Assembly: GCA_020632255.1 (NCBI GenBank)
Contig: JACKFX010000001.1
Span: forward strand, 58,734-122,733
Length of the DNA stretch: 64,000 bases
Reading direction: 5' to 3'
DNA from: Pseudomonadales bacterium
GTDB taxonomy: Bacteria; Patescibacteriota; Microgenomatia; UBA1400; PJMF01
The notes beneath the pieces were generated by a model, which saw only the letters and a program-made list of their open reading frames with translations, was not told the DNA's origin and ran no database searches. The translations under genes were made by a program, and so were the position numbers. Position 1 is the stretch's first letter. Each line of letters opens with the position of its first letter. Of this stretch, positions 33,205 through 58,967 are shown piece by piece.

Positions 33205-34752
33205 TTACTTGTTCTTCAAATCAAGCTCACGGTTAATAGTTCCCATGACTTGTGGACCGTTAAACACCATGCCAGTAATCATTTGAAGTAAGTCTGCCCC
33301 GGCATCAAGTTTTGCTTGTGCAGTAGCGGTGTCAAAAATGCCTCCACAGCCAATGATAGTAAAGCGATCATAGAAGTTATCTCGAGTTAGTTTGATCAAA
33401 GCATTTGAGCGTGCAAAAGTTGGTCGGCCACTGAGGTTTCCTTTACGCGACTTCCAAACTTTTCTGTCTTCTGGTGTAACAGCAGGATTATTCTTATCCT
33501 TTGTCAGGTTCCCAAAAATGACACCTTGCACATTGTGTTCATCAGCAACCGCTAGCAATTGTAGGGTTTCTTTTTCAGACTGATCAATTGGCATCTTGAT
33601 GTACAAAGGTTTACTCAGTTGGAGTGAATCGGTGACAGTCAGTAGTTGTTCTAATCGTGCTGATGAAGTAAAAGGTTCACCCCCAAAGGTGTTTGGACAG
33701 CTAATGTTTAATTCATAGTAGCTATGGTTAACGTGAGATTTTTCAAACACTAAAAAACCTTTGACGATATCCATAATTTGTTCTTGGTCGCTGTCAAAGT
33801 GAGCGTTAGTTGAAGCAATACTAATACCCACAGGAACGGTGAATTGAACACCTGTAAGTCTGCGAGCAACTTCTTTAGCCCCCAATGTTTTGAGCCCTTT
33901 GTTTACAATCAGAGCCTTTGAGTTGGGTAAACGACCCAAACGGGGTTTAGGGTTACCCTCATATGGTTGGTAGGTAACAGTACCAATTGTGTGCCACCCA
34001 AAACCGACGGGTCCTAAAATGCGTGCCATTTCGCCGTTATAGTCGAAGCCAGCACACAGGCCCATCTTATTTGGGAACAGAATTCCATCCTTCACAACTG
34101 CAGTTGTAGCTGAGTTGTAAGAAAAAACGATTGATGTTAACCAACGTGTGATAGCAAAACTTCCGAGTAATTTTCCAAAAAAAGTAAATTGATTATGGAC
34201 AGCTTCTGGGTCAACTAAAAAAAGAATTCTTTTTAGAATATTTTGATATAAAAATCCAATAGTTTTTTGACTCACAGCTTTTAGCAAGGAATGGGGACTA
34301 TTCTGAGTCATTCTAAAGTATTTCCAAGAAACGAAAAAAAGTGTTGCGCTTGTTACTGCTGAAATCAGGCAATACAAACACCAACCCTTAATGAGAACGG
34401 CCATGATAAAGACTAAATACATGGAGAACAAGAGTCCGAATGAAGTGATCAAGGTGTAGAGCTGTTGTGTAGAGGTATATGCTCGCAGTTTTTTTGGCAT
34501 CCATTTGGAGACATCAATTTCGAGCAGCAGTAAACTACCTAAAATAAGTAGTGTCGCATAATACAATAATCCTAATATTGAGACAGGTATTGGTCCAATA
34601 TGTGAGTACTTACTCAGTAGCACTGCTCCACAATCAAAGCCTGTTCCACAGGGTGGAATGATTCCCTGCATTTCCTCGAAGGTAATGTATCCTGCATCAG
34701 TAAGTCCAATGAGTGGAAGTGCAACATGCAGAAGAAGGAGAAAGAGTTTCAT
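33205..34752 (-). CDS. fusion protein: N-terminal VKOR (vitamin K epoxide reductase)-like membrane domain + C-terminal class-2 dihydroorotate dehydrogenase
   Basis: N-terminal 170 aa: loop Cys pair PPCGTGFDCG (Cx5C), SKYSHIGPIPVSILGLLYY, and a TM CXXC (GWCLYCL). C-terminal: GLCAGFDYNGE, NISCPNT, IIGCGGIFDTATAQAKLDAGADLLQMITGMVFNGPQV (PyrD). Confidence 0.6.
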   Translation of the reverse strand: MKLFLLLLHVALPLIGLTDAGYITFEEMQGIIPPCGTGFDCGAVLLSKYSHIGPIPVSILGLLYYATLLILGSLLLLEIDVSKWMPKKLRAYTSTQQLYTLITSFGLLFSMYLVFIMAVLIKGWCLYCLISAVTSATLFFVSWKYFRMTQNSPHSLLKAVSQKTIGFLYQNILKRILFLVDPEAVHNQFTFFGKLLGSFAITRWLTSIVFSYNSATTAVVKDGILFPNKMGLCAGFDYNGEMARILGPVGFGWHTIGTVTYQPYEGNPKPRLGRLPNSKALIVNKGLKTLGAKEVARRLTGVQFTVPVGISIASTNAHFDSDQEQIMDIVKGFLVFEKSHVNHSYYELNISCPNTFGGEPFTSSARLEQLLTVTDSLQLSKPLYIKMPIDQSEKETLQLLAVADEHNVQGVIFGNLTKDKNNPAVTPEDRKVWKSRKGNLSGRPTFARSNALIKLTRDNFYDRFTIIGCGGIFDTATAQAKLDAGADLLQMITGMVFNGPQVMGTINRELDLKNK

Positions 34753-42111: not shown

Positions 42112-42420
42112 CTAGCTGATGTCATTCAAGACTGCGGCATTTTCGGCCAGCTCAGCTTTCGCAGCTTCCACTTCAGCCTCAGCTTCTTTCAGCTCGGCTT
42201 TCAGTGCTGTGACGCGGGCTTCTGCTTTTTCCAAACGGCCGGTAGCGGCTTCAACAGCCGCCTGTACGGCGCTACGGATGTCTTCGATGGTCTTGTCGGT
42301 GGCGGTTGCAACCACAGATAACATCGATTTGATCTGGCGGTTGAATTTCGTCGTCAGACGATTTTCCAGTTCTGCCATTTCGTTTTCATGCGTTTCGCGT
42401 TTAATCCAGGGAAAGTTCAT
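42112..42420 (-). CDS. coiled-coil protein in a GC-rich islet, unknown
   Basis: A/E/K heptad-rich sequence. Local GC is about 52% against ~38% for the surroundings. Confidence 0.35.
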   Translation of the reverse strand: MNFPWIKRETHENEMAELENRLTTKFNRQIKSMLSVVATATDKTIEDIRSAVQAAVEAATGRLEKAEARVTALKAELKEAEAEVEAAKAELAENAAVLNDIS

Positions 42421-42644: not shown

Positions 42645-43010
42645 ATGGGTTACGGATACGGAATAAACGATTCAGAACCGCATGCCACAGATCACGATCA
42701 GCTTTTTCGAGCGTTCATGATGTGGGCATCACACCACCAGGCCTTTCTTGGTGAAGATGGTGTTCAAGTGACATATGCTGATCTGGGCTATGAGCTACAA
42801 AGTCCAGACGATGTATTTCAGCTCAAGTCACGTTCAAGTGCGAGTAAACTGAGTATGGCTGTCTATTTACAGTCACGCTTTGTGGCCGATACGGTATTTT
42901 TGGTTGTGCCAGCAAGTCATCATGGCACGATCCAGAGGAAGTTGGGAATTACGTTTCACTATCGCCGGGGACCGATTATCATGGTCCTTCGAAAGAAAAA
43001 AGAGCGGTAG
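42645..43010 (+). CDS. hypothetical protein in the GC-rich islet
   Basis: ORF only. Confidence 0.3.
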   Translation: MGYGYGINDSEPHATDHDQLFRAFMMWASHHQAFLGEDGVQVTYADLGYELQSPDDVFQLKSRSSASKLSMAVYLQSRFVADTVFLVVPASHHGTIQRKLGITFHYRRGPIIMVLRKKKER

Positions 43011-43028: not shown

Positions 43029-43058
43029 TTGGCCCGGACTTTCAGTCCGGGCCATTAT
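43029..43058. terminator. hairpin ggcccggact-ttc-agtccgggcc
   Basis: 10-bp perfect stem between convergent genes. Confidence 0.5.
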
Positions 43059-43885
43059 TGTTTAATCCGATAACCATCGGGAGTGTTTTCAATGAGCTCT
43101 TCTGCTAATAAATCTCCAAGCACTTTCTCAAAGTACTTCTTCTCACCTTTAATTTCTTGTTTCAACTCAACTTCAGTCAGGAGTGGGTGTTGTGTCAGGT
43201 ATCGAATGATCTCTCCCCTCACCTGTCGCGGTGAGCCTTCAAATCGGGATTGTTTGGTGTGATGTTTACTATTTCGACTGGGATTTGGAAAGATTTTTTT
43301 CAGGTGGCTGCCATAGTCCATCAAGGCAGCGTACCACTCTCGTGGGTTATTGGTATAAATAGTTGCTTCAATGAGAGGTAGTAGCTCAGCATCTTCAACA
43401 TTGGTCCGTTTAGGAAAAAAATGATAAATATAGATGGAGCGAATATTTGTTTCAATCACAACTTCTGGATTATTAAAGGCAAAAGTACTGATTGCAGTGG
43501 CAGTGTATGGACCAATACCAGGCAGTTTTTGCAGCTCATCAGCAGTACTCGGAAAGGTGTCTTCAAGTTCAGTATGCACTTTTTGAGCAGTTTGCCATAA
43601 AAACTTGGCACGACGGTTATATCCCAACCCCTGCCATAAGGATAAAACTTCAGCGAGAGATGCTTGGGCCAAAACTTTAGTAGAGGGAAACGTTTCAAGA
43701 AATGCCAGGTATTTAGTGATGACGCGTTCAACTTGAGTTTGTTGAAGCATGAGTTCGGAGACAAGAATCTTATAGGGATCGGTGGTGTTTCTCCACGGCA
43801 GTTCATAGCGGCCGTGTTTTGAGTACCACCACAAGATGAATTGCTGGAAGTTGGCTACATCAGTTTTTTTCACTTTTCCAAGCAT
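43055..43885 (-). CDS. MutY-like HhH-GPD adenine DNA glycosylase, no Fe-S cluster cysteines visible
   Basis: WWYSKHGRYELPWR N-terminus, LPGIGPYTA HhH-GPD loop. The C-terminal region lacks the Cx6Cx2Cx5C motif. Confidence 0.55.
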   Translation of the reverse strand: MLGKVKKTDVANFQQFILWWYSKHGRYELPWRNTTDPYKILVSELMLQQTQVERVITKYLAFLETFPSTKVLAQASLAEVLSLWQGLGYNRRAKFLWQTAQKVHTELEDTFPSTADELQKLPGIGPYTATAISTFAFNNPEVVIETNIRSIYIYHFFPKRTNVEDAELLPLIEATIYTNNPREWYAALMDYGSHLKKIFPNPSRNSKHHTKQSRFEGSPRQVRGEIIRYLTQHPLLTEVELKQEIKGEKKYFEKVLGDLLAEELIENTPDGYRIKQ

Positions 43886-44498
43886 AACACAGAGACGTAC
43901 TGTGTTTTAGATATATCTCTTAGCTTTAATCTCACTCTTGCATAAATAGTGCATGTGTCTAAGCAATATTTTTTGTAATTCACCTTCAAAACATATGTGT
44001 GCAGAAGCGATTTATTTCGGAAAAACTATGTGATGTTGTGAGTATTTTCAGCTACGAAATGTCTGTGGAAAGTTGTGTCTTCTTGTCTGGATTTTAAAAA
44101 AACTTGTTGTAGCCAGTGAGGAAAACTGAAAGCGACGTTTAGTTAAGACCTATGTTGTGCATCCGAGTGCGTGTAGCTAATACATTTCGATTGTTCTTTT
44201 TAAAACAATTATTAGTCGAGTATATGTACACAGTTGGGATGATATGTTTTCAATAACTTCTAGCTTTTTTTAATAGTCGACGCTTTTGTTGCACGGCTTT
44301 TTACCAAGAACGGCAGTGTGTAAATAAGCTCTTTATTGCTAAAGAGCTTATTAACCTTCACACATTGGGGCGAACCAGATAAGAATACTCCAATTACGTA
44401 GATCAAGTTTTTTTTGAAATATGCTATAATTAGCTCATATTTACTAAATTATCATTTTGTGCGCAATCACATACAAAATAATTTAAGAAAGGATAGCT

Positions 44499-44942
44499 AT
44501 GAGTTTGAAATATCTTATAGAAAGTGAACTGCCCATTATTAGTAAGGTCCCTGAGGATCAGCCCAATCTTGATAAAGCCATTCAAAATCCAGACAGTCCC
44601 GAAGTAAATGTGTTTTGGTTTGTTCACAGACTCAACTCCCTTTTTATGGCTTTGGCCAATTCTAATTTTTCTCCAGAACAGATTCAATTTGATAGTTTAG
44701 CTCGGTGTATCAGTGGTGAAGACAGTTTTGAAAATCTTAGTTTGTTTACTGATGATCCAAAGAACTATGACGGTAGTAGCCAGCCTACAGATGAATTTCT
44801 TAAAGAAAATCAACAAAATATTCAAGATGTTATCGCTGGTATCGAAGAGTTTAGTATTACAGTAACAGATTCTGGTTTATTGGCGAATCAATTGAAAAAT
44901 CAATACGATGATAGATTTTTTCAGTTGCGGGTTTTTGAATAA
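44499..44942 (+). CDS. hypothetical acidic protein (147 aa) in the segment inserted between the mutY 5'-end duplicates
   Basis: ORF only. Confidence 0.4.
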   Translation: MSLKYLIESELPIISKVPEDQPNLDKAIQNPDSPEVNVFWFVHRLNSLFMALANSNFSPEQIQFDSLARCISGEDSFENLSLFTDDPKNYDGSSQPTDEFLKENQQNIQDVIAGIEEFSITVTDSGLLANQLKNQYDDRFFQLRVFE

Positions 44943-45214
44943 GTACTTTTATTTCTTGTAACTTAACTTGCATACTTAAATCGTTATTGATTTTTGAGTG
45001 GACTATGACTTTGGTTGGCGTCTAGCTGCGCTCTTCTTTTGTCACAGATTTTTTTAATCAAAAAGAATACTCGCATATTTTATTTCGTTTGTGCTCAAGC
45101 TTGATTACATTTTCTATGGAGAGATTTTCCTAATATCTACTCATTGGTCTTAGGGCATTTGCGTGAGAAACAATTACTATGTTGATAGAATTGTTTTAAA
45201 TATCAGATAGTATC

Positions 45215-45523
45215 TCAAATCACTGCAATTATTCCTACAAATACTACTGATCGTCTTGAAGAATCTCTTTGTACGCTCTCTAATTTGAATGAACTCATTA
45301 TCGTCACTAGCTCTGTTTCCATCTTAAGTACCAATTGACCTGTGAATAATTTGGGTACAACTCTCTCAACTTGAGTCTGTTGGAGCATTAGCTCAGAAAC
45401 TAACACTTTGTAAGGATCTGTAGTCTTTCGCCATGGAAGTTCATATCGACCATGTTTTGAGTACCACCACAGGATAAAACGCTGGAAGTTATTACTATCG
45501 GTATTTTTCACTTTTCCAAGCAT
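45215..45523 (-). pseudogene. diverged duplicate of the first ~60 codons of the mutY-like gene
   Basis: MLGKVKNTDSNNFQRFILWWYSKHGRYELPWRKTTDPYKVLVSELMLQQTQVERV is about 85% identical to the N-terminus of 43055-43885, then diverges into nonsense. Confidence 0.5.
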
Positions 45524-45579
45524 AGCGCAGGATACTCTGATGAGTTGCTCGTAACACTAAAACGAGTTTATCACCACGC

Positions 45580-45897
45580 CTAAAATAAGCACTTACTCAA
45601 ATCAACTTTATTTTTTTTGAAGATGACGCCCTCAGCCCGAAGTTTTTGTTCTTGTACTTTGGCTCCACCAAAGGCGTACCCTGGAGCCAGTCTGCCATCA
45701 CTAAAAACAACTCGATGACAAGGAAACTGTGAGCTGTCAGGGTTTTGGTGTAAAATTTTACCAACTAACCGGGGAGTGGATAAAAACAGGTCTCTGGCAA
45801 TTTGGCCATAGGTTGTGACTTTTCCCTTGGGAATGGTTGTTAGATACTCAAAGACGTCGGGCGCAAACTTTTTGAGTGCAGATGGTTCATTTTGCAT
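45580..45897 (-). CDS. methylated-DNA–protein-cysteine methyltransferase (MGMT/Ogt C-terminal domain only)
   Basis: PCHRVV active-site motif and TYGQIA. Start taken at the internal Met (MQNEPSAL). Confidence 0.6.
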   Translation of the reverse strand: MQNEPSALKKFAPDVFEYLTTIPKGKVTTYGQIARDLFLSTPRLVGKILHQNPDSSQFPCHRVVFSDGRLAPGYAFGGAKVQEQKLRAEGVIFKKNKVDLSKCLF

Positions 45898-58409: not shown

Positions 58410-58967
58410 TTACCACAACTCATCACCAAAGAATAGTGGGCTACTTAAAAATTCATTTTTGTATTTTTGAGCTTTATCTGACACAAACTGCATAGCTACT
58501 CTTGATTTTGTTACTTTAGGATTAGACGCATCTCCTTCTAATACAGGAATATCATTAAAAATCCATCCACATTTTTGGTAAAAGGAACTATTTTCATCTT
58601 CACAGCTATAGAGAACAATATCTCTATCTACTTGTTGATCAATGTATTTCATTCCTTCTTGAACTATTTGAGTGCCAAATCCTCGCTTTCTGAATGATGG
58701 ATAGGTTAAGACACCTGTTAAACCATACAACGTAAACTCAGTACCTAAGTGTTTCATTACTCTTGAAACAACCTGAACATGTGAGATAAGCAGATTTCCA
58801 TGAGTTAAGAGTATTGAAATTGGATTATCTTCTGGTGTTGTGATCCAGTCGCGGTAGAGGTTCTCGTTCTCGAATCCTTCTGACCAAACAATCCGCTGAA
58901 AGGAAAGTATTTGGTAGAGCCATTTCTCAGGAAGATCGTTTTGTTTGTATATGAGTAGATCGGTCAT
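58410..58967 (-). CDS. GNAT family N-acetyltransferase
   Basis: FRKRGFGTQIVQEGMKYI motif A. Confidence 0.6.
   Translation of the reverse strand: MTDLLIYKQNDLPEKWLYQILSFQRIVWSEGFENENLYRDWITTPEDNPISILLTHGNLLISHVQVVSRVMKHLGTEFTLYGLTGVLTYPSFRKRGFGTQIVQEGMKYIDQQVDRDIVLYSCEDENSSFYQKCGWIFNDIPVLEGDASNPKVTKSRVAMQFVSDKAQKYKNEFLSSPLFFGDELW

Follow-up and report, generated by a model that had tools for sequence, protein, structure and literature searches.

Prophage e14, which resides in the icd gene of Escherichia coli, leaves behind an icdC fragment, and most of the changes between the two copies of the gene end are synonymous or conservative (Hill et al. 1989, cited in PMC13626634). Arrays of displaced gene fragments, such as those of type VI secretion system (T6SS) effector-immunity loci and the orphan tips of Rhs and contact-dependent growth inhibition (CDI) systems, have been proposed to arise by homology-facilitated illegitimate recombination (PMC5361080; PMC3240628). 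A locus with features of both was analyzed in a 64,000-nt stretch of DNA (hereafter “the window”; positions 58,734 to 122,733 of contig JACKFX010000001.1, assembly GCA_020632255.1) from a metagenome-assembled genome (MAG) of Patescibacteria type. In this locus, the first 58 codons of a gene for a MutYX-type adenine DNA glycosylase (mutYX) occur twice, as diverged copies on either side of a 1,464-bp spacer, and only one of the copies runs on into a full-length gene. The arrangement is read here, tentatively and with somewhat less than even confidence, as an insertion accompanied by replacement of the 5' end of the gene, produced in one recombination event between anciently diverged MutYX-type alleles.

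Under this reading, the locus would resemble e14 (and phage 21) in icd in two respects: an insert in a housekeeping gene brings a diverged gene end while the gene stays intact, and the displaced native end persists as a pseudogene on the far side of the insert. The differences are considerable. The 5' end is replaced here and the 3' end there, so that the present insert must supply a start codon and expression signals; the insert measures only 1.46 kb and carries a single ORFan, with no integrase, attachment-site (att) core, or sign of excision found; and the two copies are much more deeply diverged, their synonymous sites being saturated. In the T6SS and Rhs/CDI arrays, as here, incoming diverged DNA displaces part of a gene and a truncated remnant is left beside the new copy, with no need of a dedicated recombinase. 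However, those arrays are under diversifying selection and are built repeatedly, whereas this is one housekeeping repair gene with one scar that recurs in 0 of 168 related loci. A third comparison is offered by the cis-mobilizable elements (CIMEs), which are att-flanked islands without a recombination module, known from streptococcal families of integrative and conjugative elements (ICEs). They are recognised by att sites common to a co-resident ICE that supplies the integrase. A small integrase-less insert bounded by direct repeats derived from a gene end is shared with CIMEs; in contrast to them, no ICE partner, att core or related element was found here.

The repeated gene end and the intact glycosylase

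On the minus strand, in 5' to 3' order, the locus comprises a gene for a 364-aa membrane protein, an Ogt-type methyltransferase gene (ogt), an open reading frame (ORF) of 102 codons, the spacer, and the 276-codon glycosylase gene (Table 1). The intact gene is called copy B and the truncated one copy A; their repeated segments are denoted B(1-58) and A(1-58). The repeat search aligned 43711-43892 with 45349-45530 (182 nt, 76% identity). Compared codon by codon, A(1-58) and B(1-58) share 132 of 174 nucleotides (75.9%) and 50 of 58 amino acids (86%; BLASTP E = 2e-36). The boundary of the repeat is abrupt: past codon 58, the in-register nucleotide identity is 29%, i.e. random, and upstream of the ATG the two copies are homologous over at most ca. 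7-20 nt. The remainder of the fragment ORF (codons 59-102) was matched by neither blastn nor tblastx to other parts of mutYX or to relatives, and no homologue of it was retrieved in a protein search.

Table 1. Coordinates in the window of the glycosylase locus and its flanking features
Feature	Position	Strand	Basis or remark
PPAT-DUF359 fusion protein, 325 aa	41013-41990	-	Cytidylyltransferase-like (PPAT-type) domain and DUF359
Coiled-coil ORF (cc102)	42112-42420		Homologue of the corresponding small gene in L185 (E = 3e-17)
orf121, convergent neighbour downstream of mutYX	42645-43010	+	Without family match
GC-rich hairpin between convergent orf121 and mutYX	43030-43054	.	Terminator scan; -23.4 kcal/mol, z = -6.1
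Intact glycosylase gene, 276 aa (copy B)	43055-43885	-	Pfam HhH-GPD (PF00730) and HHH
Repeat copy B(1-58), first 58 codons of the intact gene	43712-43885	-	
Spacer between the repeat copies, 1,464 bp, unique	43886-45349	.	GC 33.7%
Perfect 13-bp palindrome, 4-nt loop	44323-44352	.	Between the mutYX start and ORF147
ORF147, acidic ORFan, 147 aa	44499-44942	+	Opposite to mutYX; AAGGA ribosome-binding site
Read-through tail of the fragment ORF, codons 59-102 and stop	45215-45349	-	Non-homologous
Repeat copy A(1-58), 5' piece of a diverged mutYX allele, orphaned	45350-45523	-	56 nt downstream of ogt
Ogt-type methyltransferase	45580-45897	-	C-terminal domain only, PCHR motif; PF01035, TIGR00589
Membrane protein, 364 aa	45887-46981	-	

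A duplicated mutY-like 5' end had been described in the original prediction, which was made from the letters of the window and its ORFs; the E value places that duplication far beyond chance, and several of its particulars needed adjustment. The identity of ~85% given there is correct for the protein (86%) and too high for the DNA (76%). The first ~60 codons were said to recur at 45215-45523; codons 1-58 do recur, at 45350-45523, and codons 59-102 of that ORF are unrelated to mutYX. The insert, put at 1.3 kb (43886-45214), is in fact the longer non-homologous spacer listed in Table 1.

The arrangement was also found in other assemblies. Fifteen contigs, taken from Logan assemblies of different SRA runs, from an assembly in ENA, and from another NCBI MAG (GCA_020429005.1), hold parts of the region and are 99.9-100% identical to the window. 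Six of the fifteen (L082, L083/L093, L084/L096, L094, L097, and L098) span both repeat copies, and all assembled contigs carry the integrated form. Strain variation within the population, which was sought as a test of selection on the fragment, was absent, the contigs being all identical. An assembly chimera of two co-occurring related populations would be in keeping with the source, which is a MAG, and with copies that resemble alleles of different lineages. However, the six spanning contigs, which come from separate runs and the second MAG, do so at 100% identity; assemblers do not join sequences at 76% identity; and no intact A-type gene was present in any database searched. This explanation is thus extremely improbable. 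The arrangement is real and fixed in the sampled population, and the assembly-chimera reading is rejected.

MutYX proteins are defined by an HhH-GPD domain with the MutY signature, by the lack of [4Fe-4S] cysteines, and by a short X-type C-terminal region in place of the NUDIX-like domain (PMC12631127). In copy B, the Pfam HhH-GPD domain covers residues 42-161, and TIGR01084 (mutY) was matched only in part (residues 13-194, the catalytic domain only) and below its cutoff. The best match in the PDB was 8UUC (E = 2.9e-69, residues 28-245, extending into the C-terminal region), which is the MutYX of Eggerthella sp., a clusterless adenine glycosylase whose C-terminal domain is novel (PMC12631127). 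The protein contains zero cysteines and hence no [4Fe-4S] cysteines, and its first 58 codons contain the SELMLQQTQV catalytic and 8-oxoguanine (OG)-recognition motif. Shared with 8UUC are the lack of Fe-S cysteines, the short non-NUDIX C-terminal domain, and the conserved SELMLQQTQV motif; it differs in coming from a Patescibacteria-type genome. By these features of its sequence, the glycosylase is a clusterless adenine DNA glycosylase of the MutYX type.

Positions conserved in at least 97% of 119 homologues were regarded as invariant; there are 73 in the whole gene, 24 of them within codons 1-58. Relative to the 119 homologues, copy B is full-length, and it retains 72 of the 73 invariant residues. 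The sole departure is position 57, at which copy B has Thr, 117 of the 119 close homologues have Pro, and the aligned position of 8UUC has Gly. Copy B can thus be taken as a working gene, full-length and conserved apart from P57T, and the disruption of mutY considered in the original prediction is not borne out. An effect of the event on mutation rate would rest on this one substitution and is speculative.

Divergence, context and origin of the copies

The 42 nucleotide differences between A(1-58) and B(1-58) are distributed 9/3/30 over codon positions 1/2/3 (chi-square p = 5.8e-7). According to the Nei-Gojobori method, the proportion of synonymous differences (pS) is 0.79, which is saturated, and that of nonsynonymous differences (pN) is 0.097. 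Identical synonymous codons make up 21 of 45 between A and B, about equal to the 19 of 42 between B and its ortholog in L088, the whole protein of which is only 73% identical to copy B. Most differences are thus synonymous, synonymous sites are saturated, and A and B share as many identical synonymous codons, in proportion, as B and L088 do. The copies therefore evolved apart over a long period, each as a working gene in a lineage of its own. A and B are thus xenologous, as judged from their substitution pattern.

Two other origins of the duplication were considered and rejected. A decaying local duplicate, whether tandem or segmental, is ruled out by the distribution over codon positions and by a divergence equal to that of orthologues of other lineages. 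A diversity-generating retroelement was discarded because the mismatches are not confined to adenine (at the 42 sites, copy B has C at 18, A at 11, T at 8, and G at 5, and copy A has T at 14, A at 12, G at 9, and C at 7); no reverse transcriptase was found in the neighbourhood. As a separate observation, the synonymous divergence between the copies is uneven: codons 1-25 contain 13 identical and 5 different synonymous codons, codons 26-58 contain 8 and 19 (Fisher p = 0.007, with the split chosen post hoc), and there is no like contrast against L088. The unevenness stems partly from a larger number of two-fold-degenerate codons in codons 1-25, and a short gene-conversion tract between A and B is possible.

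Fragment A has neither a stop codon nor a frameshift and retains all 24 of the 24 invariant residues of its segment, P57 included. In simulated neutral decay of the fragment, the chance of a stop codon was 41% after 5% change and 63% after 10%. From its intactness it follows that the time spent as a pseudogene has been short relative to the age of the split between A and B.

The same intactness could be expected if the fragment were an old in-genome partial duplicate under selection as a small protein (58 MutYX residues and a new tail of 44 residues), possibly co-expressed with ogt. Such a protein would account for an ORF open over 102 codons with every invariant residue of the segment kept, a low pN/pS is also expected under continued purifying selection, and the position behind ogt, presumably with expression signals, would have been inherited. 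On the other hand, none of 168 related loci has such a gene, though, given the saturated synonymous divergence, its age would have to be similar to that of the separation from those lineages. The first 58 residues are not an autonomous unit of the HhH-GPD fold, the Pfam domain of which extends from residue 42 to 161, and the tail is without a homologue. We consider this explanation very improbable.

The MutYX proteins closest to that of the window are 67-73% identical to it, and none lies between 73% and 100%. In relatives, a block is conserved that consists of ogt, mutYX, an opposite-strand ORF like orf121, the PPAT-DUF359 fusion, rarA, and tag. With 64-76% aa identity to the gene that precedes mutYX in L089, L090, L092, L185, and L187, ogt is the conserved upstream neighbour, by which the ancestral location of the mutYX start can be recognised. 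In L092 and L187, mutYX comes immediately after ogt, at a distance of 31 and 33 nt, respectively; this is the uninterrupted state, for which the original prediction had advised searching, found in relatives whose MutYX proteins are only 67-70% identical to that of the window. Fragment A sits where mutYX starts in these two. On the other side, orf121 has 34-57% aa identity to the opposite-strand ORF just 3' of mutYX (L089, L090, L091, L092, L185, and L187). This convergent partner is kept in every close relative examined and may be functionally linked to the glycosylase; its conservation indicates that the 3' side of mutYX is in its ancestral context.

Other relatives contain additional genes at the same place. 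In three of them (L089:3394-4614, L090:228-1418, and L185:3722-4936), an opposite-strand ORFan of ~400 aa lies between ogt and mutYX; the members of this fast-evolving family are 21-33% identical mutually and have no Pfam match. In L088, another gene, of 496 aa, is located upstream of mutYX. The junction of ogt and mutYX thus appears to be a hot spot, i.e. a recurrent site of gene gain in the clade. A second N-terminal fragment was present in 0 of the 168 related loci (1.9 Mb), the six closest included, so that the duplicate is not a conserved small gene of the relatives, a finding that the original prediction had named as one that would tell against it. The parent of the fragment was sought with the 102-aa ORF among 5.8 billion proteins and with the 58-aa segment among JGI metagenome contigs, and nothing closer than copy B was obtained.

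Short proteins of 66-137 aa retrieved with the fragment as query and annotated as “adenine glycosylase” or “MutY” (P0125, P0134, P0137, and P0141; L101-L104) were evaluated as parallel cases and rejected. On their contigs, many neighbouring genes are split as well (CorA, LGT, MatE, SBP), and there is no full-length copy nearby. They look like frameshift artefacts of frameshift-prone assemblies, not gene remnants.

Phylogeny, which had been suggested as the means of identifying the ancestral 5' copy, was applied to the 58-aa copies and was uninformative, A and B being about equally distant from every relative. Position, Pro57, and the GC content at third codon positions (GC3) instead favour A(1-58) as the native 5' end and B(1-58) as an imported replacement. 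T57 of copy B lies one codon before the breakpoint, and 2 of the 73 invariant positions fall within codons 56-60 (p ~0.027). The GC3 of B is 0.52 in codons 1-58 (30/58) and 0.36 in codons 59-276 (78/218; Fisher p = 0.034), that of A(1-58) is 0.36, and the mutYX genes of four relatives have no N-terminal GC3 excess. The combined p value for T57 and GC3 is ~0.007, calculated post hoc. By these signals, copy B is probably a chimera joined at codon 57/58.

Insertion in one event or displacement of an allele

In the proposed course of events, mutYX would originally have stood immediately behind ogt. Foreign DNA of ca. 1.64 kb would have entered mutYX after codon 58, comprising the 1,464-bp spacer with ORF147, the xenologous codons 1-58, and a short leader. 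The imported 5' segment would have been fused in frame to native codons 59-276, which would yield a working chimera, and native codons 1-58 would have been displaced to remain 56 nt behind ogt as a recently orphaned pseudogene reading into 44 unrelated codons. The agent may have been a site-specific recombinase that acted in trans or has since been lost; alternatively, a circular fragment may have integrated in the Campbell manner. Two junctions are predicted: at the empty site, A codons 50-58 would be joined to B from codon 59 onward (ACTCAAGTTGAGAGAGTTGTACCCAAA followed directly by TACCTGGCATTTCTTGAAACG), and in the circle, B codons 50-58 would be joined to the tail of A (ACTCAAGTTGAACGCGTCATCACTAAA followed directly by TTATTCACAGGTCAATTGG). 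The ancestral synteny downstream (orf121, cc102, PPAT-DUF359, and rarA) is in favour of this course. A single event is presumed to have been responsible.

A number of observations weigh against it. No recombinase was found in or near the insert: the genes between 34 and 53 kb are without a recombinase domain, and the sole Phage_integrase match (234-1046) is 42 kb off. There is no identical core at the boundary, where AAA(T) alone is common to both copies and the last 15 nt are identical at 8 of 15 positions; the longest identical run nearby comprises 11 nt (repeat positions 148-158) and stops 16 nt short of the boundary. Neither the spacer nor ORF147 has a relative in phage, plasmid, viral-contig, metagenome, or protein collections, and so nothing marks a mobile element. 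Because the scar is absent from the 168 related loci, the relatives sampled give no sign of repeated targeting of this site. Further, phylogeny fails to place the native copy, given segments of only 58 aa and relatives so distant. The chimera signals of T57 and GC3 are weak and were noticed post hoc; of the 43 window genes compared, 10 have a GC3 excess of at least 0.138 at the N-terminal end.

The main rival, and a strong one, is displacement of a whole allele through homologous recombination on one side only, by homology-facilitated illegitimate recombination or something like it, in which case B would be a single, non-chimeric allele. DNA of a diverged relative would have been anchored by homology on one flank and joined illegitimately, on the other, at the boundary of codons 58 and 59 of the other allele. 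Two directions are conceivable: either native codons 59-276 gave way to the spacer together with an entire foreign mutYX (B) and genes downstream of it, or the native DNA upstream gave way to a foreign ogt with A(1-58). Such a process is documented, and similar arrays of displaced fragments have been attributed to it as a proposal (PMC3240628; PMC5361080). Its product would have one junction in homologous DNA and, at the other, microhomology to the donor; neither parental sequence turned up in the collections searched, where the closest MutYX is 73% identical. It explains xenologous copies with a single sharp junction equally well, and it needs no integrase, att core, or mobile element, none of which was found. 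The gene-content hot spot between ogt and mutYX makes a donor with extra DNA upstream of mutYX plausible, and the donor and recipient segments are diverged orthologues, with the pS and pN given above and a synonymous identity between A and B equal to that between B and L088. RecA-type anchoring, however, is very inefficient between genomes so diverged, and it would be needed here despite ca. 24% nucleotide divergence even in the conserved segment. Under displacement, both T57 beside the breakpoint and the step in GC3 at codon 58 would have to be coincidental, at the combined post hoc p value noted above. A comparison with six relatives over ogt, mutYX, orf121, PPAT, rarA, and tag gave identities without discordant affinity of either flank, which is a further point against displacement. 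On balance, this rival is judged possible but rather unlikely.

Insertion with replacement of the 5' end is therefore preferred in its plain form, and the original prediction is partly supported. It had proposed a small integrase-less insertion that is an old island remnant; the geometry is that of an insertion and no integrase was found, while nothing identifies the 1.46 kb as the remnant of an island. Its proposal that the insert carried a replacement copy and left a diverged duplicate agrees with the empty site in relatives and the xenologous copies; an att core, an integrase, or a related element, however, was not found. It was thus right in geometry and unproven with respect to an island. 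A more elaborate version can be imagined, in which the 1.64-kb segment would be a minimal non-autonomous integrative cassette of the candidate phyla radiation (CPR) that targets the 5' end of mutYX and supplies an N-terminus with expression signals, its ORFan cargo would act on repair (e.g. as a DNA-mimic inhibitor or modulator of the glycosylase), and P57T would alter repair and the mutation rate. We regard this version as highly doubtful.

If the preferred reading is true, the locus would be a clean case of DNA exchange between deeply diverged lineages of Patescibacteria, which are uncultured and have small genomes and in which recombination and gene flow are hard to observe. A housekeeping repair gene would have been rebuilt as an inter-lineage chimera in which the invariant residues are kept save one at the joint. 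The scar is real but of an ordinary kind of recombination, and knowledge of how such scars arise is unchanged. For annotation, the ORF at 45215-45523 is best treated as a gene remnant and not as a gene.

The spacer, neighbouring genes and other observations

The spacer was described as AT-rich in the original prediction, which is mildly so: its GC content is below that of the window (37.9%) and of the flanking genes (40-44%). No similarity to it was detected elsewhere in the window or in the relatives' loci, nor among records of phages and plasmids, IMG/VR, and JGI contigs; no Rfam family rose above noise, and promoter and terminator scans gave results at chance level. ORF147, the acidic hypothetical ORF noted earlier, is indeed acidic, with an isoelectric point of 4.19 and 25 D+E versus 10 K+R. 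A gap of 613 nt separates it from the start of the glycosylase gene (43885). ORF147 looks gene-like by its ribosome-binding site and codon usage (codon log-likelihood of 0.19 per codon, the top of six frames). Among 5.8 billion proteins and 1.84 billion representatives, it matched only itself, and it had no Pfam, PHROG, or NCBIfam match. The AlphaFold2 single-sequence model had a predicted local distance difference test (pLDDT) score of 49 and was unusable.

The possibility that the spacer is a decayed version of the ~400-aa gene of L089, L090, and L185 was rejected, since a six-frame profile search gave E > 1 and hhalign against ORF147 gave a probability of 0.2%; a resemblance between the spacer/ORF147 and that family (ENEDLPEV versus QNPDSPEV) was not significant. 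The palindrome within the spacer folds at -18 to -20 kcal/mol (z = -4.0 and -5.7), and it is not a canonical terminator because no T-run follows it. A 7-bp hairpin (43886-43906, z = -3.0) is found directly 5' of the start codon of the intact gene.

Past the 3' end of the glycosylase gene, the GC-rich hairpin, which is likely a bidirectional terminator, is followed by the convergent orf121, the coiled-coil ORF, the PPAT-DUF359 fusion, rarA, and tag. The fusion is kept beside rarA in all relatives. The surroundings had been called a DNA-repair cluster, and this is borne out by Tag, RarA, a DEAD helicase, a MazG-like protein, the glycosylase, and the Ogt-type methyltransferase.

Several observations concern other parts of the window. 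A 515-aa protein (33205-34752, minus strand) combines an N-terminal VKOR domain with a dihydroorotate dehydrogenase domain. The segment 49400-50300, with genes for a HAD hydrolase and an EamA transporter, has a GC content of 0.27-0.30, below the 0.337 of the spacer, and a strongly negative GC skew. The sole recombinase found in the window is a tyrosine recombinase of 270 aa (234-1046, minus strand) with Phage_integrase and SAM-like N-terminal domains. It adjoins a truncated tRNA at the edge of the window (1-76) and is followed by an ORF with an ADP-ribosyltransferase exoenzyme domain (1326-1892); this region (1-1892) may be a tRNA-linked island, or the enzyme may be a Xer-type recombinase. Finally, the source MAG and many related contigs (P0121, P0122, L001, L008-L010, and others) are publicly labelled “Pseudomonadales”, “Gammaproteobacteria”, or “Spirochaetales”. 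The gene content and the other relatives of these MAGs are those of Patescibacteria (with Woesebacteria or Paceibacteria labels), and the “Pseudomonadales”-type labels on the deposited MAGs are probably taxonomy errors.

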